DNA from: Candidatus Actinomarina sp.
Lineage (GTDB): Bacteria > Actinomycetota > Acidimicrobiia > Actinomarinales > Actinomarinaceae
Assembly: GCA_041234785.1 (NCBI GenBank)
Contig: JBEROH010000025.1
Location: forward strand, 30,444-94,443
Length of the DNA stretch: 64,000 nt
Direction of reading: 5' to 3'
Part shown: positions 12,243-57,929 of the stretch, piece by piece
How the letters are laid out: every line of letters begins with the position of its first letter
Position numbering within the stretch: the first letter of the stretch is position 1
Notes under the pieces: generated by a model
Told to the model about the DNA's origin: nothing
The model's database searches: none
Seen by the model: only the letters and a program-made list of their open reading frames with translations
Program-made: the position numbers and the translations under genes

Positions 12243-12245
12243 AAT

Positions 12246-12860: not shown

Positions 12861-12861
12861 T

Positions 12862-13389
12862 ATGTTAGAAATTTTACTTTTTTTTATTCCAGCTAGTTTA
12901 ATTATTATCGGAGCATTAATTGTTGTTTTCGCAAAAAATCCCGTACATAATGCGATGGGTTTAGTTTTAACCCTTATTTCACTTGCGATTGCATATATTA
13001 CTTTAAATGCACCTTTTGTTGCAATGGTTCAAATGCTAGTTTATGCAGGTGCAGTAATGACATTATTTTTATTTGTAATCATGATGATTGGAGTTGATAA
13101 AAGAGAACAATCAACAGAAAAAATTAAAGGTCAAACATATTTAGTAAGTGGAGTATTTCTAATACTTATTTCACTTTTAGTTTACGTTGCAATTAATTCT
13201 AAATTTAAATGGTCTCTATGGTTTCCTAAAGTCGACTATGTTGTAGAGGGAACCCCTCAATTAATAGCAGGGTTACTTTTTACAGGTTGGATACTTCCGT
13301 TTGAAATAATTTCTTTATTATTAATTGTTGCCACAGCTGCTGCGATTGCCTTAGCTTATGACTCAAAAAAGAAGAGTACAGATGCTTGA
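12862..13389 (+). CDS. nuoJ: NADH-quinone oxidoreductase subunit J
   Basis: Hydrophobic ND6-like protein. ATG at 12862 chosen directly after the nuoI stop. The ORF track's longer 12814 start overlaps nuoI in another frame. Confidence 0.75.
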
Positions 13390-13690
13390 GGTAACAACGG
13401 ACTGGTATTTAACGCTTTCTGCAATTTTATTTTCAATTGGCTTTTTTGGAATGATGATAAGAAAAAATGCCTTAATTATGTTTATGTGTATTGAGCTTAT
13501 GTTAAATGCAGTTAATTTAACTTTTATTGCTGCATCCAATCATTTTGGTCAAATAGATGGACAGATTGCAGTTTTTTTTGTACTTGTTGTAGCTGCTGCA
13601 GAAGTTGTTGTAGGGTTAGCAATTATTGTATCAATTTTTAAAAAACAAGTATCCGCATCTGTTGATGTTTTAAATATTTCTAGAGGTTAA
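13382..13690 (+). CDS. nuoK: NADH-quinone oxidoreductase subunit K
   Basis: About 100 aa, 3 TM segments, ND4L-like ([11 protein letters not shown]...[12 protein letters not shown]). ATG 13382 overlaps the nuoJ stop. An alternative ATG at 13358 is possible. Confidence 0.75.
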
Positions 13691-13691
13691 G

Positions 13692-15590: not shown

Positions 15591-17074
15591 TAGAACTAAT
15601 TTTTTCATTTATTTTTGTACCTTTTTTAGGTTCAATAATTATTTTTCTACTCCCAAAAACTCGTTCTGAATTGTATAGACCAATCTCAATTGCTATCTCT
15701 TTGATCACTCTAACTAATTCAATTTACTTATTATTTAGTGAGTATTCAAAAACGGAGTTTAATATTTTATACAGATTTACATGGATTAAATCCTATGGTT
15801 TAGAAATAAACTTTGGAACATCTGGAATGTCAGCACTACTTATTTTTCTCACAGCTTTGTTAATAGTCTTATCACTATTCTCTCTCAACCAACTTCACGC
15901 AGAAAGCAAAGGTTTTCTCGGTTCATTTCTAGCTTTGCATTTTGCAATCAATGGAGTATTTGTTAGCGGTGATTTAATTTCACTATTTATATTTTTTGAA
16001 GCAATCCTAATTCCAATGTATTTCTTAATGGGAATATGGGGTGGTGAGAACAGAAAATATGCGACAATAAAATTTATAATTTATACCGTATTTGGTTCAA
16101 TTTTTATTTTTATTGGTACAGTTTATGTCGCTGTTATTAGTTATTCATATAATGGCAAGTTAGCTGTCGACTTTGAAACACTTGGAAATTTAAATTTAAC
16201 TTTAACGCAATCTAAAGTTTTATTTTTACTTTTCACTTTTGGTTTTTTAGTAAAAGTCCCAATCTTTCCACTACATACATGGCTTCCAGACGCACATGTA
16301 GAAGCCCCTACTGCAGGAAGCATCATGCTTGCAGGAGTTTTGTTAAAAGTTGGAGCTTTTGGAATACTTAGAGTTTCCATACCTTTTTTTACTGAAGGGT
16401 ATCTTGAATATCGAAGTTATATTGCAATTCTTTCAGTAATTGGGATTATTTATGGCGCTGTTGTAGCAATTGCACAGGAGGATATTAAAAAATTAATTGC
16501 ATATTCTTCTATTAGCCACATGGGATTTGTAATGTTGGGAATCTCAGCAGGTAGTCTACTAAGTTTAGAAGGTGCAATTATTCAAATTTTTAACCATGGA
16601 ATTACAGCTGCAGCATTGTTTATGCTTGTTGGATTTTTATATGATAGAAGACATACAAGAAAAATAAGTGAATTTGGAGGGTTAAAAATAACAATGCCTA
16701 AATATGCCGCAATATTTTTATTTACATCCTTTGCATCGATTGGATTACCAGGGCTTAATGGTTTTGTGGGAGAGTTCATGATATTAATAGGAAGTTACGA
16801 AACTTTTAATCTCCTCTCAACTATTGCTGCTTTAGGTGTAGTTTTAGCAGCTATATATATGCTTTGGGCATATCAAAGAATTTTTACTGGTAGCATTTCT
16901 AAAGAAGAAAACAAGGTATTAAAAGATCTTAACCTGAGAGAGTTAATTTCAATTGTTCCTTTATTATTACTTATGTTGTTAATTGGGGTTTATCCAAAAT
17001 TAATTGAAAGTTTTGTCACCCAAGATGCTTTTGCAATCAATAGTATTATTAAATTTATTATAGGTATGAAATGA
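15587..17074 (+). CDS. nuoM: NADH-quinone oxidoreductase subunit M
   Basis: 495 aa. ND4 motifs (HTWLPDAHVEAPTAGSIMLAGVLLK). Confidence 0.9.
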   Translation: MIELIFSFIFVPFLGSIIIFLLPKTRSELYRPISIAISLITLTNSIYLLFSEYSKTEFNILYRFTWIKSYGLEINFGTSGMSALLIFLTALLIVLSLFSLNQLHAESKGFLGSFLALHFAINGVFVSGDLISLFIFFEAILIPMYFLMGIWGGENRKYATIKFIIYTVFGSIFIFIGTVYVAVISYSYNGKLAVDFETLGNLNLTLTQSKVLFLLFTFGFLVKVPIFPLHTWLPDAHVEAPTAGSIMLAGVLLKVGAFGILRVSIPFFTEGYLEYRSYIAILSVIGIIYGAVVAIAQEDIKKLIAYSSISHMGFVMLGISAGSLLSLEGAIIQIFNHGITAAALFMLVGFLYDRRHTRKISEFGGLKITMPKYAAIFLFTSFASIGLPGLNGFVGEFMILIGSYETFNLLSTIAALGVVLAAIYMLWAYQRIFTGSISKEENKVLKDLNLRELISIVPLLLLMLLIGVYPKLIESFVTQDAFAINSIIKFIIGMK

Positions 17075-18543
17075 CATCAATTTCAGAGTTAATTGGTTTA
17101 AATTTTGTTGTTATTGGTCCCACTTTAACTTTATTAGTGACCACTTTGATTCTTCTTTTTTCTACTATATCGATTAGAACTTCTACTGTTGTAAAAAAAT
17201 ACATTACATTAGTTGGTGTCTTTGCAACTTTATTTGCAATATTTTTAAAATTTGGTTTATTTTTTTCAAATGGTCTATCTTCTTACTTTTCAGAGAAAAT
17301 ATTGCTTGATGAATTTTCTTTGTTTGGAAATTTGTTGATTGGGTTTGTATTGATATTTACTTTCATACCTTTTTGGAAAACTTCAGAAATGTTTTCAAGT
17401 AAAACTACTGAAGCAATTATTTTAATATTGATGTCAGCTTCAGGGTTTCTTTTAATGGTAGATTCCGAAAATTTTATTATGTTATTTATAGGATTAGAAA
17501 TTGGTTCTATTAGTTTGTATGCTTTATCAGGATTAAATAGAGGTGACAAGTTAAGTAACGAGGCTTCACTCAAGTACTTTTTACTAGGATCTCTAGCTTC
17601 CTGCATATTGATTTATGGTGTTGCCCTTTTATATGTTTCGTTATCAATAACAGGTGTTTACGAAACAAGTATTGCAATAAGTTTTATTGGCACAGATAAT
17701 GTTCCCTTAACAACATTAGTTGGACTAATATTTTTGATTGTAGGATTGTTATTTAAGGTTGCAGCCGCCCCATTTCAAGCTTGGGCGCCAGACGTTTACC
17801 AAGGTGCTCCAACAGGATATGTAGGGTATATGGCATCGGTAGCTAAAGTATCCTCCTTCATAGTTTTAGCTCGACTATCAGCTGTTTCATTATCATTAAT
17901 TTTGGATAAATTTGAACTATTCTTTTCTGCCATTATTATCTTGTCAGTAGTTTTGGGCTCATTGTTTGCTTCAAATCAAACTGACCTTAAAAGATTGTTA
18001 GCTTATAGCGGTGTAATACAGTCTGGTTTTATTCTTGCAGGAATCAGTTCAGGCCTTAATGGTATTAGTGCTTCATTATTTTATCTTACGACCTACATAG
18101 TCCAGCTCCTTGGAGTATTTTTTGTGTTCTCATTAATTAGTGGACATATGAGTTCAGATTTCAGTATTGAAAAACTTTCTGGACTTTTTAAAGATAATAA
18201 ATTATTAACTATTTCCTTCTCTATTTTTATGCTTGGTATAGCTGGACTGCCTTTAACAAGTGGTTTTGTGTCAAAATTTATTCTTATAGCAAATCTTTGG
18301 TCGTATGAAAGATATGTTATTGTCGTAATGTTAATGCTCTCTACTGTTGCTGGATTTTATTTTTACCTTAAACCTATTTGGACTGCTTCTATTCAAAAAT
18401 CAGAGATTTTGAAAATTAAAATAAAAATTAGCTTAGTTGAAAAATTAGTATTGCTAATACTTTCCTTTTTAACTATTTTTTTAGGATTATTTCCTAACGG
18501 GTTAATAAACTTAACTCGCTGGGTAATTGAGAATTATTTGTAA
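17071..18543 (+). CDS. nuoN: NADH-quinone oxidoreductase subunit N
   Basis: 490 aa. ND2 motifs (APFQAWAPDVYQGAPT). Last gene of operon 1. Confidence 0.9.
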   Translation: MTSISELIGLNFVVIGPTLTLLVTTLILLFSTISIRTSTVVKKYITLVGVFATLFAIFLKFGLFFSNGLSSYFSEKILLDEFSLFGNLLIGFVLIFTFIPFWKTSEMFSSKTTEAIILILMSASGFLLMVDSENFIMLFIGLEIGSISLYALSGLNRGDKLSNEASLKYFLLGSLASCILIYGVALLYVSLSITGVYETSIAISFIGTDNVPLTTLVGLIFLIVGLLFKVAAAPFQAWAPDVYQGAPTGYVGYMASVAKVSSFIVLARLSAVSLSLILDKFELFFSAIIILSVVLGSLFASNQTDLKRLLAYSGVIQSGFILAGISSGLNGISASLFYLTTYIVQLLGVFFVFSLISGHMSSDFSIEKLSGLFKDNKLLTISFSIFMLGIAGLPLTSGFVSKFILIANLWSYERYVIVVMLMLSTVAGFYFYLKPIWTASIQKSEILKIKIKISLVEKLVLLILSFLTIFLGLFPNGLINLTRWVIENYL

Positions 18544-27877: not shown

Positions 27878-27910
27878 AAATTGATTCTAATTTAAAAGCT
27901 ATTAATATAT

Positions 27911-27934
27911 TTAGATATTTAGATATTTAGATTT
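27911..27934. repeat. Tandem 8-mer repeat (TTAGATAT)x3 just upstream of the heliorhodopsin start
   Basis: ttagatat ttagatat ttagattt at 27911-27934, 11 bp upstream of the ATG at 27946. Candidate promoter or operator element. Confidence 0.4.
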
Positions 27935-27945: not shown

Positions 27946-28749
27946 ATGGAAATTAAAATAAAAAAATTAAGAAAATTTAATATAATTATGGGTACAGTCC
28001 ACTTAATTCAAGGTGGAATTTTGTTTTGGCTTGGTACTATTGTGAATTCAGATTTCGTTGTACCAATAACATTAACCCAACTAGTTGGAGTAGGCTCTGT
28101 GAGCGACCCTTCAAGTTTTGCATTGGTTCCACAATTAGAAGTGTGGAGAGAGGTTAATAATTTTGGACCAGCCGTAGCAACTTTCTTGATAGCATCTGCT
28201 GTAGCACACTATTTAATTTCAGGCCCATTTTATGGAAAGTACAAAGAAGATTTATCCAAAGGAATTAATAAAGTACGTTGGATAGAGTACTCAATCAGCG
28301 CTTCTGTAATGATTGTTTTAATTGCACTTCTTGTTGGCATTTATGATATTTGGGCTTTGGCTGGAATTTTCTTTATGAATGCCGCAATGTGTTGGTTTGG
28401 TTGGATGATGGAAGTTCACAACCAATATACACAAAAGGTTGATTGGACAAGCTACATTATGGGCTGCATAGTTGGAGTTGCACCTTGGATTTTTATTTTT
28501 ATAAATTTAATTGGTGATGGAGTATCTACAGATACCAATCCCCAAGGTGTCCCACAATTTGTTGTTTGGATTTTTGTAAGTATCTTTCTATTTTTTAATA
28601 CCTTTTCAATCAACATGATTCTGCAATATAAGCAAATTGGTAAATGGAAAGACTACCTTTATGGTGAAAGAGCATATATTTGGTTAAGTTTATTGGCTAA
28701 GACTTGTCTAGCTTGGCAAGTTTTCTTTGGAACTTATCAACCAAATTAA
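27946..28749 (+). CDS. Heliorhodopsin (inverted-topology microbial rhodopsin)
   Basis: 267 aa, 7 TM segments. Strong resemblance to heliorhodopsin 48C12 throughout, e.g. RWIEYSISASVMIVLIA (counter-ion Glu region), WFGWMMEV, and YKQIGKWKDYLYGERAYIWLSLLAKTCLAWQVFFGT (Schiff-base Lys in SLLAK). Confidence 0.85.
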   Translation: MEIKIKKLRKFNIIMGTVHLIQGGILFWLGTIVNSDFVVPITLTQLVGVGSVSDPSSFALVPQLEVWREVNNFGPAVATFLIASAVAHYLISGPFYGKYKEDLSKGINKVRWIEYSISASVMIVLIALLVGIYDIWALAGIFFMNAAMCWFGWMMEVHNQYTQKVDWTSYIMGCIVGVAPWIFIFINLIGDGVSTDTNPQGVPQFVVWIFVSIFLFFNTFSINMILQYKQIGKWKDYLYGERAYIWLSLLAKTCLAWQVFFGTYQPN

Positions 28750-30832: not shown

Positions 30833-31198
30833 ATGATTTCTTATTTTCAAGATTACGTAACAATAGGAGCGGTCCTAGGTTTTGGCATATTTTTTATGCT
30901 CTTTTTAGTTGGCATTGCTTCAATTTTAAGACCCGATAAACCTTATGCTGAAAAGCTTGAAACTTATGAATGTGGAGTAGACCCAGTTGGAACTGGTTGG
31001 AGTCAAACTTATGTTAGATATTATATTTTTGGTTTACTATTTGTAATTTTTGATGTTGAAGCAGTTTTTATTTTCCCTTGGGCGATTAATTTAGAGAAAC
31101 TTGGATATTTTGGATTAGTTGAGATGTTTATATTTGTATTTATTTTACTGATTGGTCTTCTTTATGCGATTAGAAAGGATGTTCTTAAATGGGAGTAG
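30833..31198 (+). CDS. nuoA2: Complex I subunit A, second (11-subunit) operon
   Basis: 121 aa, 3 TM segments, YECG motif. Confidence 0.85.
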
Positions 31199-31686
31199 TC
31201 GATAAATTTGGATTACCAAAACCTATATCTACTGTATTTAATTGGGCAAGGTCATACTCACTTTGGTATTTTCAGTTTGGATTAGCATGTTGTGCTATTG
31301 AGGTTATGGCAGTTAGTGGACCAAGACATGATTTTATGAGATTAGGCATTATTCCATTACCAGCATCTCCGAGACAGGCTGATTTAATGATAGTTGCTGG
31401 AACTGTAACTGATAAAATGGCACCATCGGTTAAAAGGCTTTATGACCAAATGCCTGAACCAAAATATGTAATTTCAATGGGATCTTGTTCTAATAGCGGA
31501 GGACCGTATTGGGATTCATATTCGGTAACCAAAGGAGTTGATCAATTAATCCCAGTAGATGTTTATGTACCAGGCTGCCCACCAAGACCAGAAGCATTGC
31601 AAGAAGGAATTATACTTCTTCAAAAGAAAATTAGAGGTGAGAACATGAAAGAAAAGTGGGAGCAAAAACAAGTTGAGCCAATTTAA
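31189..31686 (+). CDS. nuoB2: Complex I subunit B, second operon
   Basis: [22 protein letters not shown]2-cluster motifs. Confidence 0.9.
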
Positions 31687-31687
31687 G

Positions 31688-32260
31688 ATGGAAGAATTTT
31701 TAGAGTCAATAAAAAATAACTTTAAAGAAGTAACTTTTGATTTCCAGACTATAAGTATCAAAGTTGATTCTAATCAGTGGGTAGAAACCCATAAGTTGCT
31801 AAAAGAATCATTTCAACTAAATTTTTTTTCATGGCTTTCCGCAATTGATTGGGATAATGATGTTTCTGTTGGTGATGCTCCAAAAGAACAAGTGACTCCA
31901 AGTTTTGAAATTATCTCTTGTCTGTCTGACACTACGTCCAATAGACTATTAACTATTTCTACTCTTGTTCCAAAAACTGAGCCTACCGTCCCAACTCTTA
32001 CAGACATATTTGCTGGAGCAAATTGGCATGAGAGAGAAGCTTTCGAGATGTTTGGAATAACATTTGAAGGACATCCGAATTTAGAAAAATTGTATTTACC
32101 TGATGGATATGAAGGAAATCCAATGCTTAAATCATTTGAACTAATTAGTCGTGAAGTTAAACCTTGGCCGGGGGACGTAGACGTTGAAGGTATGCCAGAA
32201 GGCTCAGAAGACGATGAAAGCGCCGATGCTACAGAAAAATTAGAAAATGATAATAGTTAA
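31688..32260 (+). CDS. nuoC2: Complex I subunit C (30 kDa), second operon, with acidic C-terminal tail
   Basis: HEREAFEMFGI motif. ATG at 31688 follows the nuoB2 stop. The ORF track's TTG at 31673 overlaps nuoB2. C-terminus is DVDVEGMPEGSEDDESADATEKLENDNS. Confidence 0.8.
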   Translation: MEEFLESIKNNFKEVTFDFQTISIKVDSNQWVETHKLLKESFQLNFFSWLSAIDWDNDVSVGDAPKEQVTPSFEIISCLSDTTSNRLLTISTLVPKTEPTVPTLTDIFAGANWHEREAFEMFGITFEGHPNLEKLYLPDGYEGNPMLKSFELISREVKPWPGDVDVEGMPEGSEDDESADATEKLENDNS

Positions 32261-33458
32261 TATGGTTAATATTTTAGATCCTCAAGATATGAGAAATTAT
32301 TCAGAAGCTTCAGTTTCAATTGAAATTGAAACTGAAGACATGACTTTAAACATTGGCCCCCAACATCCATCTACACATGGGGTTCTAAGACTTGTTGCTA
32401 AGGTTGATGGAGAAAAAGTTTACAATGTAGAACCCGTATTAGGTTATATGCATAGAGGATATGAAAAACTTGCTGAAGTTAGAACCTATCCCCAAATTAC
32501 AACTTTAGTTAATAGAATTGACTGGGTTTCCGGATTCTCAAATGAAATACCTTTTATTGCTGGAGCTGAAAGGTTGATGGAAATAGAAGTGCCAGAAAGA
32601 GCAAAACATATAAGATTAATTCTTACTGAAATGGCAAGAATTTGCTCCCACTTTGTATTTAACGGTGCCTATCCACTAGAAATAGGAGCTTTAACTCCAA
32701 TTTTTTATGCCATGGAAGACAGGGAAAGGGTTCTTGATTTAATAGAGTCTGTTACAGGAGGAAGATTCCACCCAAACTTTAACAGAATTGGTGGCGTTAA
32801 ACCTGCTGCAGGAGCTGGACCTACAAGTAAAAAAAATATACAAGATTTACCTGCTGGTTTCTATAGAGACACAAAACTTGCTATGGAAAAAGTGATTGAA
32901 GCTGCAGACAAATTTCAAAATTTAATTGGTGGGAATGAAGTTTTTCAAAAAAGAACTAAAAAAGTAGGAATTCTGTCTAGAGAAACAGCCGAAGCATTTG
33001 GTGTTTCTGGACCTATACTTCGAGCATCTGGTGTTAAATATGATTTAAGAACATATACTGACTACTTACCATACGAAAAGTTTGATTTCGATATCCCTAT
33101 AGGGGAAAACGGTGATTGTTTTGACAGGTGGGATGTGAGAACGAAAGAAATGGTTGAGTCTGCAAAAATAGTACTCCAGGCAATTGATTCAATGCCATCT
33201 GGTCCGTTGCAAGCTAAAGTCCCTAAAGTAATAAAAGTTCCTCCTGGAAGAACATATGTAAGAGCTGAAAACCCTAAAGGTGAAATGGGATACTATATTG
33301 TCTCAGAGGGTGGCTTAGGGCCTTATAGACTTAAGGTAAGAACTGCCTCATTTAGTAATGTTTCAATCCTACCCGTAATGCTAGAGGGTGCTTTGCTCCC
33401 TGATTTAATAGCAATCATGGGAAGTCTTGATTTCGTGTTAGGAGATGTTGACCGATGA
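32247..33458 (+). CDS. nuoD2: Complex I subunit D (49 kDa), second operon
   Basis: 403 aa. GPQHPSTHGVLRL and a terminal DR. Carries Arg in MHRGYEK at the position equivalent to NDUFS2 Arg85. Alternative start ATG at 32262. Confidence 0.85.
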   Translation: MIIVNMVNILDPQDMRNYSEASVSIEIETEDMTLNIGPQHPSTHGVLRLVAKVDGEKVYNVEPVLGYMHRGYEKLAEVRTYPQITTLVNRIDWVSGFSNEIPFIAGAERLMEIEVPERAKHIRLILTEMARICSHFVFNGAYPLEIGALTPIFYAMEDRERVLDLIESVTGGRFHPNFNRIGGVKPAAGAGPTSKKNIQDLPAGFYRDTKLAMEKVIEAADKFQNLIGGNEVFQKRTKKVGILSRETAEAFGVSGPILRASGVKYDLRTYTDYLPYEKFDFDIPIGENGDCFDRWDVRTKEMVESAKIVLQAIDSMPSGPLQAKVPKVIKVPPGRTYVRAENPKGEMGYYIVSEGGLGPYRLKVRTASFSNVSILPVMLEGALLPDLIAIMGSLDFVLGDVDR

Positions 33459-34426
33459 GTGAAGTTTTAATTAAAGTTGGCTGGCTTGCTCTCGCCGCTC
33501 TTAATGGTGCTGTGATTTTCACAATTATGGACGTTAAAGGAGCTTCTTGGATGCAAAGAAGACCAGGACCACTTCACGTTGGATTAAGAGGGTTTATTTT
33601 TCCTTTAGCAGAGATTATTAAGTTTATCCAAAAAGAAGACATAATTCCAACAGAAGTTGATAGACCAGTATTTAAGTGGGCTCCCGCATATGTTGTGGTT
33701 TCTGCTGTATCGCTTTTTGCGATAGTTCCTTTGAGCCCCTCTTTGGTGATAGTTGATCTTGAATTAGGTGTATTTTTTGCCCTAGCTATTAGCTCACTTT
33801 CAACAATTGGCGTTCTTACCGCAGGTTGGTCTTCAGCAAATAAGTATTCTTTAATGGGAGGCTTAAGAGCTGCAGGTCAGCTAATCGCTTATGAGCTTCC
33901 ATTAATCCTTGCTGTTGTTGGTGTTGTTATTCAGGCTGAAACTATGTCATTAGTCGGCATTGTTGAAAAACAAATTGAGTGGGGAGTTCCGTTTATATTT
34001 AGTGGACAAATAATTGCTTTCTTAATATTTATGGTTGCAGCAACAGCAGAAATGATGAGAGTACCCTTTGATATGCCTATAGGTGAATCTGAACTAGTTA
34101 GTGGTTTCATGACGGAGTATTCAGGAATTAGGTTTTTAATATTTTATATATCTGAATATATGAATATGTTTATTATGTGTGCTATCGCATCTACTTTGTT
34201 TTTAGGTGGTTACCACATACCATTACTTCCAGTAGAATGGGTGAACTTTTATGGTCCAATTTCACTTTTAACAAAAACATTTATATTAGGATTTATACTT
34301 GTAGCAGTTAGATGGTCTTTTCCTAGATTTAGAGAAGATCAATTACAAAACTTAGCATGGAAGTTTCTTATTCCTGTTTCTTTGTTGAATATTTTAATCA
34401 CAGCTGTTATGAAAGTAGGGTTCTAG
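33455..34426 (+). CDS. nuoH2: Complex I subunit H, second operon
   Basis: 323 aa. [24 protein letters not shown] and [14 protein letters not shown] motifs. ATGA overlap with nuoD2. Confidence 0.9.
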
Positions 34427-34467
34427 TGAAACGATTTAAAATAAAAATACCAGGATTTTTAATAGGA

Positions 34468-34911
34468 ATGAAAATTGTTGTCTTCAACATGTTTAAGACT
34501 TTGTCCCCATTTCACTCCAACCCAAATGTAAACTACCCTTTTGAAAAAGAAAAAGTTGCTCCAAGAGCTAGGGGTGTTATTGCCTTAGATCAAGAAGCTT
34601 GTACAAGCTGTATGCTTTGTGCACGCCAATGCCCAGATTGGTGTATCTATATTGAAGGCCATAAGGAACTACAACCACCTTCTAAACCTGGTGGAAGGCA
34701 AAGAAGTAGAGCTGTACTGGATAGATTTGATATTGACTATGCACTTTGCATGTACTGTGGAATATGTGTTGAAGTTTGTCCATTTGATGCTCTGTTTTGG
34801 TCCCCTGAGTATGAGTACTCAGAATTTAATATGGGCGATATGTTACATAACAAAGAAAGGCTTGATGATTGGTTGAAAACAGTCCCAGACCCTGAAGGGC
34901 TAGAAAGCTAA
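34468..34911 (+). CDS. nuoI2: Complex I subunit I (2x[4Fe-4S]), second operon; a divergent NdhI-like type
   Basis: [12 protein letters not shown] and [12 protein letters not shown] motifs. Start uncertain: candidates are GTG 34426 (overlapping the nuoH2 stop), ATG 34468 and ATG 34489. The ORF track's 34357 start overlaps nuoH2 by 70 nt. Confidence 0.7.
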
Positions 34912-34914
34912 TTA

Positions 34915-35433
34915 ATGGAAGTTTACGAAATTTTTACCTACTTTGTGCTTTTGTTATTAATTTCAACTGCTGTGAGAGTTGTAACCACCTCTAATGTTAT
35001 TCATGCTGCTATTTCACTTGTTTTTACACTTGCATTGACAGCAACATTGTTTTTAATATTATCTGCAGAGTTTGTTGCTCTAGTACTTGTTCTTGTATAC
35101 ATTGGAGCAGTAATTGTCTTGTTTTTGTTTGGAATTATGATAACAAGAGCTCCTTTGGGTAAAAATGCCGAACTTGATAATGATAAAAATAAAAAACTTG
35201 GGGCTATTATTGCTGGCTCAATTTTTATTCTATTTTCGTATATTTTAATTAATGGATTTGAAGGCGAGATTGCAATAAGTCAAGGGTCTTCCACTCAACT
35301 TCTTGGTGAGATCTTATTCACACGTTTTGTATTTCCATTTGAAATTGTATCTTTTGTACTTTTAGCAGCTTTAATTGGTGGCATTACTTTAGCCAGAAAA
35401 GACGAGTCTTTAATAAAAGAGGATCAAATATGA
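34915..35433 (+). CDS. nuoJ2: Complex I subunit J, second operon
   Basis: 172 aa hydrophobic ND6-like protein. Confidence 0.8.
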   Translation: MEVYEIFTYFVLLLLISTAVRVVTTSNVIHAAISLVFTLALTATLFLILSAEFVALVLVLVYIGAVIVLFLFGIMITRAPLGKNAELDNDKNKKLGAIIAGSIFILFSYILINGFEGEIAISQGSSTQLLGEILFTRFVFPFEIVSFVLLAALIGGITLARKDESLIKEDQI

Positions 35434-35735
35434 TAGTGCAACCAGTTTTAATTGTTGCAGCTGCTCTTTTTTCACTTGGGATTTATGGAATTTTAGTCAG
35501 AAGAAATGCTGTTATGGTTTTATTGTCTATTGAACTTATTTTAAATGCAGTCAATATAAATTTTATTCTTTTCGACACAATGCTTGCTGATTCTATGATG
35601 CAGGGTCAAATATTTACAATTTTTATTATTACTATAGCCGCAGCTGAGGTTGGAATTGGTCTAGCTATTGTTCTTATGCTTTTTAGAAATAGAAAAACTG
35701 CAAACATTAACGAATTTGATTTGATGAAATGGTAA
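35430..35735 (+). CDS. nuoK2: Complex I subunit K, second operon
   Basis: 101 aa, 3 TM segments (LNAVNINFIL...AAAEVGIGLAIV). Confidence 0.85.
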   Translation: MIVQPVLIVAAALFSLGIYGILVRRNAVMVLLSIELILNAVNINFILFDTMLADSMMQGQIFTIFIITIAAAEVGIGLAIVLMLFRNRKTANINEFDLMKW

Positions 35736-37744
35736 TTTTTAATATAAATTTTTTTGCTGAAGGTAAACCTGAGTATACAGATGGGGGACTATTAGCAGAG
35801 TTTACATGGCTTCTTGTGGTCTTACCTTTTATTGCAGCTTTACTTATTACTGTTGCTGGAAAATATTTACCATTTAAAGGATCTGAAATAGCATTGATAA
35901 CTATCTGTTTTATATTTTTTTATAGCATAGCTTTAATGTATTTACATATTACTGAAGGAATAGCTAGTGAATTTTTTATTAATGTAGGAAATATTGGCCA
36001 ATTTGAAATTGAGTTTGGGTGGGTTGTTGATGGTCTTTCAATCATGATGTATTTTGTGGTTGGAACTGTTGCAACTTTAGTTTTTGTTTATGCAGTAAAT
36101 TACATGGAAGGCGAAATTAGGTATACATTTTTCTTTACTTCGTTAACCCTATTTGTAGGGAGCATGTTAGTCCTTGTTTCTTCTCCTACATTAATCCAGA
36201 TACTTATTGGTTGGGAACTGGTTGGAGTGTGTTCGTACTTGTTGATTGGTCATTATTGGGAGAAAAAAGAAAATTCTTCAGCAGCAATTAAAGCATTTAT
36301 TACTAATAAAGTTGCAGATGTTGGATTAATGATTGGAATTATTATCTTAGCTTTAAATACAGGAACTCTAAGAATTTCAGAAATTCTTTATCAAGCTACT
36401 CATGATTATAAAGATATTAAAAATGTTGCTTTTGTTGCTGGGGTACTTTTGTTTATTGGAGCTATGGGTAAAAGCGCACAATTCCCTCTTCATGTATGGC
36501 TACCAGACGCAATGGCAGGTCCGACACCAGTTTCGGCATTAATGCATGCTGCAACCATGGTTACAGCGGGTGTATATTTACTTGCCAGGATGTTTCCTTT
36601 TTATGAAGCCATTGCCAAAGATGCCCTATATATAGTTATGGTTTTTGGAGTTATTACTTTAATATCCGCAGGACTTATTGCTGTCGTTCAAGATGACTTA
36701 AAAAAGGTTTTAGCATATTCAACAGTCAGTCAATTAGGTTATATGGTTGCTGCAATAGGTTCTGGAGCTTATACAGCTGCTCTTTTTCATCTTTGGACCC
36801 ATGCATTTTTTAAAGCATTATTATTTTTGGCTGCTGGTTCTGTAATACACTCTGTTCATAGCAATAGTATGTTACAGATGGGGGGTTTGCGTAAAGTGAT
36901 GCCAAAAACATTTTATACATTTATTATTGGCACGGTAGCGTTAGCAGGACTGCCACCTTTTGCAGGGTTTTTTTCAAAAGATGAAATTCTAGCTTCTCTC
37001 AACCATGAGGGTGAAACAGCATTTTTTGCAATAGCAGTACTTGGTGCTTTTATTACAGCTTTTTACATGACAAGAGCAGTTTCTCTGACATTTCTTGGTG
37101 ACTATAGAGGCCATGGACATCCACACGAATCACATGCTCTAATGACTACTCCTTTACTAATTCTATCTGCATTAGCTATTACATCAGGCTGGGTTAATAT
37201 TCCCGGAGTTTATACAGGGTTTACTAAATGGGTTACAACAAGAAGAACCCCAATTTTAGAGTATCATCCAGAAAGTTTCGATATGTTTGCATTAAGTTTG
37301 GGTTTAACAGCTGGAATATTAGGTATTGCAGCAGGTTACTACTTGTATCAATTGCAAGGTAGTGCTGAAACAGGTGATGACAAAATAAAAATACAACCCA
37401 TTTGGAATTTATTAGAAAATAAATATTATATTGATGAATTTTATTTTAAATTTATCATTGATCCAATTAAATTAACAATCTCCAAGATTATTGATCGTTT
37501 TAACACAAATGTATTAGATAGATTTGTTAATAGTTTTGGGATAGTAGCTTCAATATTTGGAAGTTTTGTATATAAAAGTTTAGATCAAAATGGTATTGAT
37601 AAGTTTTTAAACTTTTCTTCAAGCAGTACTGATAATTTTGGAGGAAGAGTTAAATTATTACAAACGGGTAGAACTCAGCAGTATTTAATGTTGTTTTTAG
37701 GTGGTGTAATAGCAATTAGTTTATTAATTTTATTTATTATATAG
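35729..37744 (+). CDS. nuoL2: Complex I subunit L (antiporter-like with long horizontal helix), second operon
   Basis: 671 aa. WLPDAMAGPTPVSALMHAATMVTAGV motif. Confidence 0.9.
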   Translation: MVIFNINFFAEGKPEYTDGGLLAEFTWLLVVLPFIAALLITVAGKYLPFKGSEIALITICFIFFYSIALMYLHITEGIASEFFINVGNIGQFEIEFGWVVDGLSIMMYFVVGTVATLVFVYAVNYMEGEIRYTFFFTSLTLFVGSMLVLVSSPTLIQILIGWELVGVCSYLLIGHYWEKKENSSAAIKAFITNKVADVGLMIGIIILALNTGTLRISEILYQATHDYKDIKNVAFVAGVLLFIGAMGKSAQFPLHVWLPDAMAGPTPVSALMHAATMVTAGVYLLARMFPFYEAIAKDALYIVMVFGVITLISAGLIAVVQDDLKKVLAYSTVSQLGYMVAAIGSGAYTAALFHLWTHAFFKALLFLAAGSVIHSVHSNSMLQMGGLRKVMPKTFYTFIIGTVALAGLPPFAGFFSKDEILASLNHEGETAFFAIAVLGAFITAFYMTRAVSLTFLGDYRGHGHPHESHALMTTPLLILSALAITSGWVNIPGVYTGFTKWVTTRRTPILEYHPESFDMFALSLGLTAGILGIAAGYYLYQLQGSAETGDDKIKIQPIWNLLENKYYIDEFYFKFIIDPIKLTISKIIDRFNTNVLDRFVNSFGIVASIFGSFVYKSLDQNGIDKFLNFSSSSTDNFGGRVKLLQTGRTQQYLMLFLGGVIAISLLILFII

Positions 37745-37752
37745 GAGGAAAA

Positions 37753-39321
37753 GTGGAATTATTATCTAACGGTTTAGGGTTGTCAGCGGTTGTATTTTTA
37801 CCGTTGGTGAGTGCATTAATAGTAGTTCTCATTCCTAAAAGTAAGGAAGGACTTATTAAGTGGTTTACACTAGCATCTTCTTTAGTGACTTTTGGTTTGA
37901 GTATTTTGTTGCTATTACTTTTTGATTTTTCAAATGCACATATTCTTCAACTAGGAAACAAAATTTCTTGGATTAAAAGTATAAATGCCAATTATGAAAT
38001 TGGAATTGATGGAATATCTCTTCCGTTATTAGTACTTTCAACATTTATTACTGTTTTAGCTGTCATATATTCAATAGAACATTTACCAGAGCCTAAAAGT
38101 CCAAAAGGTTTCATGGCACTTATTCTTGTTCTAGAAACAGGTATGAATGGTACATTTGTAGCATTAGATTTAATTTTATTTTTTGTATTTTTTGAAATAG
38201 TTTTACTTCCTATGTATTTTATGATTGGAATTTGGGGTGATAAAACTATTAGAACTGTTGCGGGGTTTAAAAATCAAATTGAAACTCGACTTTATGCAAG
38301 TATAAAGTTCTTTGTATTTACTCTTTTTGGATCTGCGTTCATGCTTTTAGGATTTCTTGGCTTGTACTACAGGGGAAATAAAACCTTTAGTATTCCAGAA
38401 TTAATTGAATTAGGTAGCTCAGGAGCTTTTACTGGAACTTTTGCAACCTTAGTGTTTTCTGTTTTATTTTTAGGTTTTGCTGTAAAAGTCCCCATGTGGC
38501 CGCTCCACACATGGTTACCTGATGCACATACTGCAGCTCCTACAGTGGGTTCAGTTTTATTAGCTGCAATACTATTAAAACTAGGTTCTTATGGATTTAT
38601 TAGAATCGCAATTCCTATATTGCCTGATCAAGCAAAAGCTTGGGCACCAGCAATCGCAATACTTTCAGCAATCGGTATTATTTATGGTTCTCTAGCTTGC
38701 TTAGCCCAAACGGATCTTAAAAGACTTATTGCTTTTTCTTCCGTTGGACATATGGGTTTTGTAATGTTGGGTATAGCAACACTGACCCCAATTGGAATTA
38801 ATGCAGCGATTATAGGAATGGTTGCCCATGGTGTTATTACAGGTCTCTTGTTTTTTATTTCTGGATCAATGGCTCATACGTATCACACTCGAGATATGGA
38901 AAGACTAGGGGGGAATATGAAATTACTTCCCAAAACTGGTGCTTTGTTAGGTTTTACTGCAATGGCTTCCCTTGGCCTTCCTGGACTAGCAGGATTTTGG
39001 GGAGAATTTATGGCATTACTTGGAGCTTTTAATCCTTTGCCAGGTTTAAACATTACTATTTTTAGATCATCTATGGTTGCAGGTGCTATTGGTACCGTTC
39101 TAACAGCAGGATATCTATTGTGGATGCTACAAAGAGTAAATTTAGGCGAACCTTCAGATGAGTGGAATAGCGAAGAATTACATGACGCCGATAAATACGA
39201 ACTTGCTGCGTGGATACCATTAGTCATCCTAACGGTTTTAATTGGAGTATTTCCGAAATTGATTTTTGGTGCAACAAATGATGCAGTAGTTAGCTTACTT
39301 TCCAAAGCATTCGGAGGTTAA
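37753..39321 (+). CDS. nuoM2: Complex I subunit M, second operon
   Basis: 522 aa. HTWLPDAHTAAPTVGSVLLAAILLK motif. GTG start 10 nt after RBS AGGAGG. Confidence 0.9.
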   Translation: MELLSNGLGLSAVVFLPLVSALIVVLIPKSKEGLIKWFTLASSLVTFGLSILLLLLFDFSNAHILQLGNKISWIKSINANYEIGIDGISLPLLVLSTFITVLAVIYSIEHLPEPKSPKGFMALILVLETGMNGTFVALDLILFFVFFEIVLLPMYFMIGIWGDKTIRTVAGFKNQIETRLYASIKFFVFTLFGSAFMLLGFLGLYYRGNKTFSIPELIELGSSGAFTGTFATLVFSVLFLGFAVKVPMWPLHTWLPDAHTAAPTVGSVLLAAILLKLGSYGFIRIAIPILPDQAKAWAPAIAILSAIGIIYGSLACLAQTDLKRLIAFSSVGHMGFVMLGIATLTPIGINAAIIGMVAHGVITGLLFFISGSMAHTYHTRDMERLGGNMKLLPKTGALLGFTAMASLGLPGLAGFWGEFMALLGAFNPLPGLNITIFRSSMVAGAIGTVLTAGYLLWMLQRVNLGEPSDEWNSEELHDADKYELAAWIPLVILTVLIGVFPKLIFGATNDAVVSLLSKAFGG

Positions 39322-39389
39322 AAATTAATATTAATTATTTTGCAATTTCTACTGAATTAATAGTTATCTTTACTATTGTTGGTACGCTT

Positions 39390-40802
39390 TTGTTAGATTT
39401 GATATTAACAAGAAAATCTAAATATTATATAGCAGTGTTTGCATTGTTAGGAACTTTATTCTCTTTAGTTCCTCTTTTTATTCAATGGTCTAACTATACA
39501 GAGCCAATATATGCATTCAGTAATAGTTATACAGTTGATAAATTTTCAATTATTTTAAAAGGATTGTTTATTCTTACTACGTATCTAACTTTTTTAATGT
39601 CAATCAACTTCATTGAAAGCGATAAGTACTATCAAGGAGAGTACTATTATCTTCTTTTAAGCTCTTTGTTAGGTGCACTAGTTGTCAGCTCATCAAGAGA
39701 CATGCTAACTATTTTTATTGGAATTGAATTAGCCTCTACTCCAATGTTTTTATTGTCAGGTTGGAAAAAAGGGGACAGAAAATCTAACGAAGGCTCAATT
39801 AAATTTTTCTTATTAGGAGTACTTTCTGCATCCTTAATTCTTTATGGATTTTCCCTGTTATATGGGCTAACTGGTCAAATAATTTTTTCTAATATATCAA
39901 CTTATATTGTTGCAAACTCTTTATCCCAATCACCCGTATTGCTTCTTAGTGTCATTTTAGTAATTTCAGGTTTAGGATTTAAAATATCTATTGTACCATT
40001 TCACTCATGGGCACCTGACACTTATGAAGGTGCGCCACTACCTGTAGCAGCGTATCTCTCTGTAAGTTCTAAAGCAACTGGATTTGTAGCTTTGATTATA
40101 TTATTAACAACAGTATTTCAATCTTCAGGAAAGAGCTGGGGAATAATTTTAGCAATTATATCTGGAGTAACAATGACAGTGGGCAATTTAATTGCACTAC
40201 AGCAATCTCATCCAGTAAGACTACTAGCCTATTCTTCTATTTCACAAGCTGGATTTATTTTGGCACCTCTAGCTTTGGCTGGTGTAACTGGGAATTATCA
40301 AGAAGGAGTCTTTGCCAGTGTTACATATATCATTATTTATACCTTTATGAATTTAGGTGCTTTTTTATGTGTTCATTTATTTGGTAATTATGCTGGATCT
40401 TCTAATTTTTATGATTGGGGTGGGGTTGCAAAGAAAGCACCCGTTGTTGGTACTTTTACAACGATTTTTTTCTTTTCCCTTGCTGGCATACCCCCACTAG
40501 GGGGTTGGTTTGCAAAATTTGTAGTATTCAGAAGTTTATTGAGTACAGGAGAAGCTATAGGACTAGCTTTAGGAATTGTCGGTGCAATTAATGCAGTTAT
40601 AGCTTTAGTTTATTATGCAAGAATTTCTAAAGTGATTTGGATGGATGAAGAAACGCAAAACTATTCTGAAAAAATATTTTACTTTGATAAACCACTTAAG
40701 GTAGTTACTTTTTTTACCGTTTTAATAACTTTTCTTGCTGGTTTCTTTCCAGGAATTTTCACCTTTCTTGGTGAGGCCTCTTCTATCTTTTTTGGCAATT
40801 AA
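39390..40802 (+). CDS. nuoN2: Complex I subunit N, second operon (5' boundary uncertain)
   Basis: 470 aa from TTG 39390. FHSWAPDTYEGAPLPVAAYLS motif. The reading frame stays open and hydrophobic for about 22 codons upstream with no ATG/GTG/TTG. Confidence 0.8.
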   Translation: MLDLILTRKSKYYIAVFALLGTLFSLVPLFIQWSNYTEPIYAFSNSYTVDKFSIILKGLFILTTYLTFLMSINFIESDKYYQGEYYYLLLSSLLGALVVSSSRDMLTIFIGIELASTPMFLLSGWKKGDRKSNEGSIKFFLLGVLSASLILYGFSLLYGLTGQIIFSNISTYIVANSLSQSPVLLLSVILVISGLGFKISIVPFHSWAPDTYEGAPLPVAAYLSVSSKATGFVALIILLTTVFQSSGKSWGIILAIISGVTMTVGNLIALQQSHPVRLLAYSSISQAGFILAPLALAGVTGNYQEGVFASVTYIIIYTFMNLGAFLCVHLFGNYAGSSNFYDWGGVAKKAPVVGTFTTIFFFSLAGIPPLGGWFAKFVVFRSLLSTGEAIGLALGIVGAINAVIALVYYARISKVIWMDEETQNYSEKIFYFDKPLKVVTFFTVLITFLAGFFPGIFTFLGEASSIFFGN

Positions 40803-47241: not shown

Positions 47242-47315
47242 AGGGGTGTAGCTCTAATTGGCAGAGCGACGGTCTCCAAAACCGTAGGTTGTGAGTTCGA
47301 GTCTCACCGCCCCTG
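47242..47315 (+). tRNA. tRNA-Trp (anticodon CCA)
   Basis: Acceptor AGGGGTG/CGCCCCT, anticodon stem-loop ACGGT-CTCCAAA-ACCGT, T-arm GTGAGTTCGAGTCTCAC. 74 nt. The CCA anticodon argues against a UGA=Trp code. Confidence 0.8.
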
Positions 47316-47326
47316 CAGAGGTAAAA

Positions 47327-47629
47327 ATGAATGAAATGAATAGAGAGATGAGACGAATGTCTGAGCGTGAAGAACGCTTAGCTAAAAAAGCTGATAGAAA
47401 TGTTGGTAAGTTTCAATCTGGTGAAAAGATATCTAGATTTAAAAAGATATCTAACTATCTTGGGGAGGTAAAAACTGAATTGAAGAGAGTCAATTGGCCA
47501 AGTTCGTCGACTTTGTCCTCTTTTACAATTGTGACAATAGTTACAATAGCCTTTTTTACTTTTTTTATTTTTGGAATGGACTTTAGTTTTAAAAATACTT
47601 TGATTACTCTATTATCTTTCGGAGAATAA
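47327..47629 (+). CDS. secE: Preprotein translocase subunit SecE
   Basis: 100 aa. C-terminal TM after KRVNWPS motif. ATG 47327 chosen because the ORF track's start lies inside tRNA-Trp. Confidence 0.8.
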   Translation: MNEMNREMRRMSEREERLAKKADRNVGKFQSGEKISRFKKISNYLGEVKTELKRVNWPSSSTLSSFTIVTIVTIAFFTFFIFGMDFSFKNTLITLLSFGE

Positions 47630-48253
47630 ATGTTAGAAGATACAAAAATAACTATCGACATAGATAATACAGATGAGGTTGAGGTCACTCCAGCTTTTAC
47701 TCATCCTTATGACCTTCCAGGAGAATGGTTTGTTTTGAATGCTCAGTCAGGACATGAAAAAAAAGTTAAAACTAATATTTTGACAAGAGTTAAAAACCTT
47801 CATCTTGACGATAAAGTTTTTGATGTTGTAATACCAACAGATGAAGTAGTTGAAATCAGAAATGGGAAAAAAGTAAATTTAGAGAAAAAAACTTTTCCAG
47901 GTTATGTTTTAGTTAGGATGGAGTTAGACGACACTACCTGGTATGAGATTAGAAACACCCCTTCAATAATAGGATTTGTTGGTTCAGGAAAAAGACCTAT
48001 AGCTCTTTCTCGTAGAGAGATTGAAAGAATTCTTGGAACAAATGAAGAACTTGAAACTAAAAAAGAATCTCCAAAATATAAACCTGACTTTGAAGTTGGG
48101 GAGACTGTTAGGGTAACAAATGGTCCTTTTGCTGACTTCAATGGTCATATTGAAGAAATAAATTTAGATCAATCAAAAGTTACAGTTTTGGTTAATATAT
48201 TTGGACGAGAAACTCCTGTAGAGCTAGGCTTTACAGACATTGTAAAGAATTAA
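47630..48253 (+). CDS. nusG: Transcription termination/antitermination factor NusG (with an N-terminal extension)
   Basis: NGN domain (EWFVLNAQSGHEKKV...) and KOW domain (FEVGETVRVTNGPFADFNGHIEEIN). Confidence 0.9.
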   Translation: MLEDTKITIDIDNTDEVEVTPAFTHPYDLPGEWFVLNAQSGHEKKVKTNILTRVKNLHLDDKVFDVVIPTDEVVEIRNGKKVNLEKKTFPGYVLVRMELDDTTWYEIRNTPSIIGFVGSGKRPIALSRREIERILGTNEELETKKESPKYKPDFEVGETVRVTNGPFADFNGHIEEINLDQSKVTVLVNIFGRETPVELGFTDIVKN

Positions 48254-54014: not shown

Positions 54015-57000
54015 ATGGATAAAGTTTTTGACCAATTAAGCATAAGTCTTGCAACATCTGATCAAATGCGAAGCTGGTCATTTGGAGAAGTTAAAAAACC
54101 AGAGACCATAAATTATAGGACTTTAAAACCAGAAAAAGATGGCCTATTTGATGAAAGAATTTTTGGACCAACAAAAGATTGGGAATGTTCATGTGGTAGA
54201 TATAAGAGAATTAGATATAGAGGCATTGTCTGTGAGCGATGTGGTGTTGAAGTTACTCGAAGAGAAGTTCGTCGTGAAAGAATGGGTCATATCGAACTAG
54301 CAGCACCAGTTACACACATTTGGTATTTCAAAGGTGTCCCAAGTCGTCTAGGTTATTTTTTAGACATGTCTCCTAAAGAACTTGAAAAAGTTATCTATTT
54401 TGCTGCATATTTAGTTGTATCTATCGACAGTAAAAAAAGAACTAAGGATTTAGCAGAACTCGAGGAAGCAGTTGTTGCAGAGGTTGAAATCGTAAATGAA
54501 GATTTTGACGAGTGGGAACAAAAAAGAGTAAAACAAATGGACACTGAGATTAAAGCAATGGAAAGTGCAAAAATTTCTGATGCTGAAATTCAAATCAGAA
54601 AAAAAGAAGTAGAAAAAGAAATCAAACAGAAAAAAGCAAAATCAGATGCAGAAATTAAAATTATTGAAGAAGCTTTTTCAACCTTAAAATCTCTTAAACC
54701 AAGAACGCTGATAGAAAATGACACTCTATGGCGTGAAATGATAGATAAATATGATGAGTATTTTACTGGTGGAATGGGTGCAGAAGCCGTAAGAGATTTG
54801 GTTAAATTAGTAGATTTAAAAGCTGAAATGGAAAAGTTAGAATTAGATTTAGAATCAAAATCTGCTCAAAGACGACAAAGAGCAATTCAACGAATGAAAG
54901 TAATAAAACCATTTGCTGATGGAAAAAATCCTCCTGAGGCAATGATTTTAGAAGTAATTCCCGTCATTCCTCCAGAGTTAAGACCTATGGTTCAACTTGA
55001 TGGAGGACGTTTTGCTACCTCAGATTTAAACGATTTGTATAGAAGACTTATCAATAGAAACAACAGGTTAAAAAAACTTATTGAACTTGGCGCACCTGAC
55101 ATCATTATTAGTAATGAAAAGAGAATGCTACAAGAATCTGTAGATGCATTATTTGACAATGGTCGAAGAGGTAGAGCAGTTGCCGGAGCAGGCGGAAGAG
55201 GACTTAAATCACTTTCTGACATGTTGAAAGGTAAACAGGGAAGATTTAGACAAAATCTTCTTGGAAAAAGAGTAGATTACTCTGCTAGATCTGTAATTGT
55301 TGTTGGCCCCCATTTACAGCTTCAACAATGTGGATTGCCAAAAATGATGGCACTTGAACTTTTTAAACCTTTTGTTATGAAGAGGTTGGTAGAACTTGGG
55401 TTAGCTCAAAATATTAAATCGGCAAAAAGAATGGTTGAAAGAGCCAGAGCTCAAGTTTGGGATGTTTTAGCAGAAGTCATTGAAGAACATCCAGTACTTT
55501 TAAATAGAGCTCCTACACTTCACAGATTAGGTATTCAGGCGTTTGAACCAATTTTAGTTGAAGGTAAAGCTATTCAGGTTCATCCGTTAGTTTGTGAGGC
55601 ATTTAATGCAGACTTTGATGGAGACCAAATGGCTGTTCATGTACCACTTTCTGCTGAAGCACAAGCTGAAGCAAGAGTGTTGATGTTATCTACTAATAAT
55701 GTTCTTTCTCCTGCCTCAGGAAATCCTATAGTTTCTCCAAGCCAAGATATGGTTATTGGTCTCTACTATATAACAGAATGTCATGATGATCTTTCAATAG
55801 CTAAACATAACTTTGTAGATTTTAATGAAGCACAAATTGCTTATGAAAATGGTCATATTAAGTTACAAACTCCAATTAGTGTAAGAATCGGAGATCTTGC
55901 TGGAAGTCCAGAAATGCATAATGAACTAAAAGGAAGATTTTCAGAATTAATAACTGATGAGCCTATAGATGGCACTAAATTAACAAAAACTACTCTTGGT
56001 AGACTTCATTTTAATTCAATTATGCCAAAGGATTTTCCCTATATTCAATCAACGGTAAGAAAACCAGAAATGAAAAAAATTATTTCTGAAATTATAGAAA
56101 GATACAACAAAGCAGAATTAAGAGAATTTTTAGATGCGATGAAGTCTGTTGGCTTTATTTTTGGTACTAAATCAGGACTTACTGTTGCAATGAATGATGT
56201 TAAAACACCTCCTAGTCAAAGTGTAATTTTAGAAAAATATGAAGCTGAAGCTGAAAAAGTCAAAAAACTTTTTAAAGATGACATCATAACTGAAAACGAA
56301 AGAAAGCAAAAAACTATAGAAATTTGGAATGAAGCCACAGAAGAAGTCATGGAAGCTATGAAAATAGAGCTTCAAAGAGAAAAATTTAATCCTGTTGATA
56401 TGATGGTTAAATCTGGTGCAAGAGGAAACATGATGCAAGTAAGACAATTAGCTTGAATGAGAGGACTTGTAGCAAATCCAAAAGGTGACATTATTGAGAG
56501 TCCAATAAAAAGTAATTTTAGAGAGGGAATGTCAGTACTAGAATATTTTATCTCAACTCACGGTGCTAGAAAAGGTCTTGCAGACACAGCTTTAAGAACA
56601 GCTGACTCTGGATATCTAACCAGAAGGCTTGTTGACGTTGCAGCTGGAATTGTAGTAAAAGAATTAGGAGATGAAAATATTGACTGGAGAGGAACTAACA
56701 AAAAAGTTATTATAGACGGAAAAGTTAGTCGTTACCTTCACTCATCACTCTATGGAAGAGTGTTAGCAGAAGATGTTAAAGTAAATAAAAAGATTGTAGA
56801 GCTCAAAAATGGTACAAAGTTAACTAAAGGAACTTATATCGATGCTGAAGTTCTTGACGGTATAGCTAAATCAGGAGTGGAAGATCTAAATGTATTAACC
56901 CCATTCAACTCTTTGCATCCTGAATCAATGGATCCTTTGTGTTATGGTTTTAGCTTAGCAACGGGAAAGCCGGTTGAAGTTGGCGAAGCAGTAGGAATTA

Positions 57001-57929
57001 TTTCAGCTCAGTCAATAGGTGAGCCTGGAACACAATTGACTATGAGAACTTTTCATACAGGTGGAGTTGTTGGATTAGATATTACTTCAGGACTTCCTAG
57101 AATTGTGGAGCTTTTTGAAGCCAGAACTCCAAAAGGAAAAGCAGTTCTATCTCCGATTAAAGGAAAGATAAAATCTATAGACTCAACTCCTGAAGGTAAT
57201 AAAACAGTTCTTATTTCAAATGAAAAAGAAGATGTAGAACTGTTAGTTTTAAGAAGACAAACGTTGTTAGTCAATCAAGGAGACAATCTGATTGCTGGTC
57301 AAGCTTTAACCACAGGTCCTAAAGATCCAAAAGAAGTTCTACAAATTAATGGTGTAAAAACTTGTCAAGAATATTTGGTTGGCGAAGTCCAAAAGACTTA
57401 CCGCGATCAAGGAGTTGAAGTTCATGATAAGCATGTTGAAATGATAGTTCGACAAATGTTGAGAAGAGTTAGAATTGTAAAATCTAATAACTCTGAATTT
57501 TTGCCAAATGAACTTGTTGACTCAACACTATTTAGAAAGACTAACCAAGGGTTAGTCAAAGATGGGAAAGTACCTGCTGAAGGAAGACCTGAGCTTATGG
57601 GTATCACAAAAGCTAGCCTTGCAACAGACTCCTGGTTATCAGCAGCATCATTCCAAGAAACAACAAGAGTACTAACTGAGGCAGCGATGAAGAGAAGTAC
57701 AGACTCGCTAAGCGGTTTGAAAGAGAATGTGATTATTGGTACATTAATACCTGCTGGAACAGGTTCAACTGCTTACCAAAAATTAATGCCTTCTTTACCA
57801 GGTGCTCCGCAAGTTTCTGAACTTGGATTTATGGCTTCAACTTCTGGTGATTCTGAAGACGATGCCTTACCAAATCCAGCTCAATGGCTAGCTATGTTAG
57901 GTGAAGAAAAAGAACAGGAGGATGAATAA
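54015..57929 (+). CDS. rpoC: DNA-directed RNA polymerase subunit beta-prime, interrupted by a single in-frame TGA at 56454-56456
   Basis: ORFs 54015..56456 (813 aa) and 56457..57929 (490 aa) are in the same frame. The junction reads ...[29 protein letters not shown] versus E. coli QIRQLAGMRGLMAKPDG, so the stop replaces the invariant Gly. Combined length 1304 aa is normal for beta-prime. Confidence 0.85.

Follow-up and report, generated by a model that had tools for sequence, protein, structure and literature searches.

An in-frame TGA at a conserved glycine codon of rpoC in one Candidatus Actinomarina assembly is private to that assembly and most likely an error

In archaea the largest subunit of RNA polymerase is naturally split, and two genes encode its parts A' and A'' (Rpo1N/Rpo1C). 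Natural splits of the bacterial homologue, beta-prime, exist in cyanobacteria (PMC10895346); in cyanobacteria and plastids the genes rpoC1 and rpoC2 encode gamma (or beta'1) and beta'2, of which beta'1 comprises 624 residues in S. elongatus (PMC10895346), and the cyanobacterial split is conserved phylum-wide. An in-frame UGA at a conserved Gly position is also known from organisms using code 25 (Gracilibacteria, SR1/Absconditabacteria), in which UGA is read as Gly. For Actinomarina, a recent preprint (10.64898/2026.04.03.716425) reports selA, selB, selC, selD and about 5 selenoproteins in every genome, along with split or truncated genes, about 5.5 in each genome. Finally, sporadic nonsense and frameshift artefacts are encountered in MAG and SAG assemblies. 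Here we compare an in-frame TGA in rpoC of a Candidatus Actinomarina sp. with these systems and with the same gene in near-identical and more distant genomes, and our data suggest that the organism itself carries an intact rpoC gene.

The window, i.e. the whole stretch of DNA that was analysed, comprises 64,000 nucleotides of contig JBEROH010000025.1 (assembly GCA_041234785.1, positions 30,444 to 94,443 of the forward strand) and has a G+C content of about 32%; at species level it is closest to Candidatus Actinomarina and other genomes of the Actinomarinales. On its plus strand rpoC is divided between two open reading frames. The first (54015-56456) consists of 813 codons and the in-frame TGA, carries the catalytic NADFDGD motif at residues 531-537 and aligns with positions 2-706 of the 1147 positions of the NCBIfam rpoC profile TIGR02386 and with positions 9-807 of the actinobacterial-type model NF011498. 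The second (56457-57929) has 490 codons, begins at the conserved Met815 codon and aligns with positions 708-1146 of TIGR02386. The two share a common frame with zero spacer, and the TGA (56454-56456, plus strand, codon 814 of rpoC) directly adjoins the ATG (TGAATG). Specifically, window positions 56445-56468 read CAA TTA GCT TGA ATG AGA GGA CTT, which translates as Q L A (stop) M R G L and bears out the initial annotation in that a TGA stands within rpoC at a Gly codon and is followed by a Met codon. Its statement that the two frames together make up a normal-length beta-prime also holds, since the joined protein has 1304 residues (813 + 1 + 490) and the sole TIGR02386 position missing between the two is the Gly.

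Two other statements need to be revised. The Gly of the QLAGMRGL segment was described as universal; among 24 more distant actinobacterial loci that we fetched, six have QIAAMRGL, four of these being Propionibacterium. Moreover, the site was said to lie just before the trigger loop. In the joined protein NADFDGD occupies residues 531-537, the stop is at 814, the bridge helix at 844-875 and the trigger loop at 1002-1017, such that the stop is 188 residues N-terminal of the trigger loop and only 30 residues N-terminal of the nearer bridge helix, just before the F-loop/bridge-helix region.

If both pieces were made, they would jointly cover beta-prime in the manner of the rpoC1 and rpoC2 products, with NADFDGD on the N-terminal piece and the bridge helix and trigger loop on the C-terminal piece. 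The position of the break is different. The rpoC1 profiles end at residues 693-694 of the window's beta-prime and the rpoC2 profiles begin at 674-678, so that the cyanobacterial junction corresponds to about residue 690 here and precedes the TGA at 814 by roughly 120 residues; and unlike the phylum-wide cyanobacterial split, the break at the TGA is found in no relative, even at 99.9% identity. The locus would resemble archaeal A'/A'' in that a homologous subunit is divided into two genes. However, positions 41-92 of TIGR02389 align with residues 173-224 of the C-terminal frame, with the A'' profile running from about residue 133 of that frame, and the A'' start comes about 130 residues after the TGA. 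The archaeal-type junction falls between the bridge helix and the trigger loop, which leaves the bridge helix on the N-terminal piece, whereas here the TGA precedes the bridge helix by 30 residues and the helix would be on the C-terminal piece.

Contigs of the same species were reached by searching for exact matches to two proteins encoded nearby, EF-G (695 aa) and ribosomal protein S12, identical copies of which were present on 15-22 public contigs. Public samples in which the species occurs include JGI 3300004369, SRR3138949, ERR14949510-27, SRR2026986 and SRR2027816. The loci retrieved (L090-L101) align without gaps to the 52-64 kb part of the window at 99.91-99.96% identity, and the gene calls of the window are collinear with those of its relatives. 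All nine loci covering the site have GGA and match the window over 21 bases on either side, and they represent seven independent assemblies: GCA_964219145.1 from NCBI, ERZ922563 and ERZ28772413 from ENA, 3300004369 from JGI, and the Logan runs ERR14949525, ERR14949524 and ERR14949517. In each of the six loci with the whole gene a single rpoC of 1304 aa is called. The T at 56454 is the sole difference from the GGA codon of these near-identical genomes, in agreement with the proposal that one GGA-to-TGA change suffices, and as a G-to-T change relative to seven of seven independent assemblies it is private to the assembly of the window. Comparing rpoC of close relatives had been proposed as a check in the initial annotation, and the outcome is GGA throughout and an unbroken gene wherever it is complete. 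As judged from these alignments, the near-identical public assemblies appear to resolve the question of the TGA without recourse to reads: the stop is not a feature of the organism or its lineage.

The 813-aa and 490-aa frames were also looked up by exact match as called genes in the protein collection, and there was no record of either. The 490-aa frame has no other private change; that it is nevertheless never recorded as a called gene suggests that the stop is absent from the other sampled assemblies. A protein search with the C-terminal frame gave as best matches 91% identical fragments starting at internal Met codons. Two entries that start at MRGL (P0104 and P0120) were considered as candidates for a split rpoC and rejected, the genes being cut by contig ends.

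At the level of species, the codon is GGN in all 56 Actinomarinales species representatives (81-90% aa identity around the site); these relatives, at no more than 90% aa identity, are too distant for the strain-level question. Wherever a species-representative locus spans the gene, rpoC is unbroken and of about 1305-1320 codons, with one exception, L047. The early rpoC stop in L047 was rejected as a true split, as it stems from a frameshift, this related MAG having one additional A in a stretch rich in A. An apparent rpoB-rpoC fusion in L011 was likewise rejected because it reflects a run of N. Over the homologues aligned, the codon is for Gly in 74 loci and Ala in six, and never for Cys. A pattern scan of metagenome DNA with N at the variable base returned seven matches, all with GGA and all from unrelated organisms, none having a blastn match to rpoC of the window. 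In the literature searched there was no report of an Actinomarina with a divided or interrupted rpoC.

We consider that the TGA is most likely a base-calling, consensus, assembly or amplification error, and that the organism probably makes a single-chain beta-prime with Gly814. The G-to-T change at 56454 would then have arisen in sequencing or in the consensus, the organism would encode GGA and make an ordinary beta-prime of 1304 residues, and the ATG after the stop would be the conserved Met of a Gly-Met dipeptide and no evolved restart codon. The stop occurs in this assembly alone and amounts to a one-base change, the gene is intact in relatives, and there is no recoding signal; we infer that the T is erroneous and was not an allele truly carried by the sampled DNA. 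Counting against an error are that the operon is free of indels relative to the relatives, that no further gene in the window is broken and that the private substitution rate of the window does not exceed that of other assemblies. The initial annotation had listed three readings, i.e. a natural split, local UGA read-through or recoding, and a sequencing or assembly error, and had chosen none; with a private TGA and Gly in seven assemblies and 56 species the third has gained, and the first two have lost ground.

Private substitutions provide some insight into the background against which the TGA should be seen. Exact look-ups of nuoH, heliorhodopsin and M48 peptidase brought 62.8 kb of the window into the comparison, with 3-10 independent assemblies at 99.76-99.98% identity. 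Private to the window are 21 substitutions (seven synonymous, ten non-synonymous, one nonsense and three intergenic; transitions:transversions 7:14). Singletons in the other assemblies number 53 (26 synonymous, 26 non-synonymous, no nonsense and one intergenic; 19:34), and shared polymorphisms 80 (48 synonymous, 27 non-synonymous, no nonsense and five intergenic; 46:34). Random substitutions in the same genes are expected to be synonymous in 21.9%, non-synonymous in 72.8% and nonsense in 5.2% of cases, so that among the 18 private coding changes about 0.9 nonsense changes would be expected if unselected, and one was observed. The private changes of the window look like a mix of real strain variation and unselected changes.

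Among the private changes are two others at invariant positions of RNA polymerase. On the plus strand, rpoC K735Q (AAA to CAA, 56217) differs from all seven near-identical assemblies, and the residue is Lys in 56 of 56 Actinomarinales species; rpoB K631Q (AAA to CAA, 52509, plus strand) differs from five of five assemblies at a position that is Lys in all 47 species covering the site. Private hits at invariant beta-prime residues occur in other assemblies of the same species too, e.g. P544Q in GCA_964219145.1 (in the VHVPLS segment, which adjoins the active site) and H433N in ERZ28772413. Together with the L047 frameshift, these two make sporadic rpoC defects typical of such assemblies; implausible changes of single bases that turn up sporadically in RNA polymerase genes thus belong to the background of these assemblies. 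At 0.33 per kb, the private substitution rate of the window falls among those of its peers (0-0.52 per kb), and the assembly is thus not obviously worse than its peers.

The TGA is like the artefacts of MAG and SAG assemblies in being a one-base private difference in an essential, otherwise perfectly conserved gene, and in being accompanied by private changes at invariant residues and by the rpoC frameshift in a related MAG. Subject to read-level confirmation, it appears to fit this class, and we note no difference from it.

It is possible, although unlikely, that the T was truly in the sampled DNA as a non-fixed, deleterious or lethal allele, carried by one sorted cell or by a minority haplotype that the assembler picked up, and destined to be a dead end with no functional meaning. 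A T in one assembly and GGA in seven near-identical ones would be accounted for in this way, and the singletons of all assemblies, at 26 synonymous to 26 non-synonymous as against 48 to 27 for shared polymorphisms, fit recent mutations that have not been purged. Yet in a large population nonsense mutations of an essential gene should occur at very low frequency, and so rare an allele is unlikely to be what an assembler reports.

A very recent split of beta-prime private to this strain, with termination at the UGA, re-initiation at the adjacent AUG, fragments 1-813 and 815-1304 and the loss of Gly814, is in our assessment decidedly unlikely. The direct adjacency of stop and start (TGAATG) speaks for it, as do the natural divisions of this subunit in cyanobacteria and archaea. 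Moreover, junction spacings of -4, -1, 0 and +1 bases are routine in this genome, e.g. TAAATG between secE and nusG (47627-47632), and because many genes are joined in this way termination-reinitiation is routine in the organism. Against it, no relative is split at any distance (seven assemblies at 99.9% identity, 56 species), and the position matches neither known split (cyanobacterial at about residue 690, archaeal A'' at about residue 945). The break would also remove Gly814, which does not vary within the order and is situated 30 residues N-terminal of the bridge helix. The 22 nt preceding the ATG contain no SD-like motif; only 25 of 67 window genes have one, so that its absence is weak evidence. 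Taken with the lack of split relatives and of a matching split site, this weakens the reading of the initial annotation in which termination-reinitiation divides beta-prime naturally. The sequence around the break shows no adaptation and no relative shares the break, and a split, if real, would thus be extremely recent. That an Actinomarina strain with a recent GGA-to-TGA change at codon 814 survives, its enzyme being assembled from 1-813 and 815-1304 at a new split site, we regard as quite improbable.

Very improbable, in turn, is a real UGA that is weakly read through by a near-cognate tRNA, e.g. tRNA-Trp(CCA), such that the full-length beta-prime produced would sustain slow growth. In E. 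coli, UGA is relatively leaky when the next base is A, as seen in the read-through of the phage Q-beta coat gene, and tRNA-Trp with the anticodon CCA, which the initial annotation had correctly named, was found with ARAGORN at 47242-47316 (plus strand). However, programmed read-through needs a conserved stop, whereas all relatives have a sense codon here. A stimulatory downstream structure is also lacking: the 70 nt beginning with the UGA have a minimum free energy of -8.5 kcal/mol, shuffled versions averaging -7.1 kcal/mol (z = -0.68), with neither a hairpin nor a SECIS element in these 70 nt, and the wider 161 nt are no better than shuffles (z = +0.58). Cells are unlikely to survive on a small percentage of an essential enzyme in which a bulky residue replaces an invariant Gly, and TGA is a normal stop in this DNA. 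The suggestion of local read-through or recoding thus finds neither a conserved stop nor a downstream structure.

The genetic code of the window appears to be the ordinary one with respect to UGA. TGA terminates 22 of the 61 plus-strand open reading frames of at least 80 aa, many of these stops being part of ATGA overlaps in which the next gene is in another frame. Four tRNAs were found in the window, for Tyr, Thr, Met and Trp (CCA), and none with a UCA anticodon. Most of the about 65 other genes match their family model full-length as judged by profile coverage, and a scan of these genes gave no second interrupted conserved gene and no other in-frame TGA; the genes include two complete complex I operons and the nusG-rplKAJL-rpoBC-rpsLG-fusA-tuf-rpsJ-rplCD block. 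This agrees with the earlier observation that no other essential gene is interrupted, to which the collinearity with relatives adds, and the conclusion that a genome-wide reassignment of UGA is unlikely is strengthened by the use of TGA as a stop. Code 25 and code 4 are excluded for the window, since TGA is a normal terminator, the tRNA set is as described and no other gene is interrupted. The likeness to code 25, an in-frame UGA exactly at a conserved Gly, is set against its single occurrence, the regular use of TGA as a stop (22/61), an actinobacterial genome and GGA in near-identical genomes. Selenocysteine had to be weighed because the Sec machinery and about 5 selenoproteins per genome are reported for all Actinomarina (10.64898/2026.04.03.716425), and was rejected, there being no downstream hairpin and no Rfam match downstream of the UGA, and the site aligning with Gly or Ala and not Cys. 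Recoding of this UGA, be it as Gly in a code-25-like manner or as selenocysteine, thus has hardly any probability in spite of the reported universal Sec machinery, given a TGA that ends 22 of 61 frames, the sole in-frame TGA among the conserved genes of the window, the lack of a UCA-anticodon tRNA there, and a downstream region free of a recoding structure.

For the annotation of such genomes the locus calls for caution, as an automatic pipeline would report either a pseudogene or a pair of rpoC fragments. A stop that was real and tolerated would give the largest RNA polymerase subunit a third natural split site, independent of the other two and just before the F-loop/bridge helix, and, if real, the locus would be a snapshot of how splits of beta-prime originate.

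Besides the in-frame TGA in rpoC, the window carries two private substitutions, one in rpoB (window 52509, K631Q) and one in rpoC (window 56217, K735Q), that are identical in form and sequence context, T[A to C]AAAG, and that both replace AAA (Lys) with CAA (Gln) at residues that are invariant in the respective protein. Such a pair may reflect a systematic, context-dependent base-calling error. Other assemblies of the same species likewise have private changes in beta-prime at positions that do not vary within the order, P544Q at codon 544, beside the active site, in GCA_964219145.1 (loci L090 and L092) and H433N at codon 433 in ERZ28772413 (L094); these too are probably assembly errors. Moreover, in a related Actinomarinales MAG (L047, JAAZZH010000005.1) rpoC ends early, at codon 1195, because one additional A in an A-rich stretch (AAAGAAGG to AAAAGAAGG, locus position about 3560-3590) shifts the frame, and the remainder of the protein carries on in the +1 frame. 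According to a 2026 preprint on Actinomarina (10.64898/2026.04.03.716425), Nanopore assemblies contain approximately 5.5 genes per genome that are split or truncated, and all 84 complete genomes have selenocysteine machinery; no tRNA-Sec gene was found within the 64-kb window.

The window also encodes a heliorhodopsin (27946-28749; Pfam PF18761, E = 1.3e-88), and a short distance upstream of its gene is an 8-bp tandem repeat, ATATTTAG (27907-27930). The number of repeat copies differs among assemblies that are otherwise 99.9% identical, with three in the window, five in the same-species locus L108 and two each in L109, L112 and L113, and the repeat may represent a variable element that influences expression. 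Furthermore, two complex I operons (4304-18543 and 30833-40802) are present within this single 64-kb stretch of a genome of approximately 1 Mb; one operon encodes the complete set of 14 subunits, nuoA-N, while the other encodes 11 and lacks nuoE, nuoF and nuoG.

Finally, comparison of the whole window with the same-species loci (L090-L119) showed that 18 assemblies, produced by several different studies, contain the species; among their sources are a crustacean-associated metagenome and a number of Logan runs. Gene order is identical throughout and nucleotide identity to the window ranges between 99.76 and 99.98%. Judged from these sequences, the population of this species is unusually clonal for a marine picoplankter.
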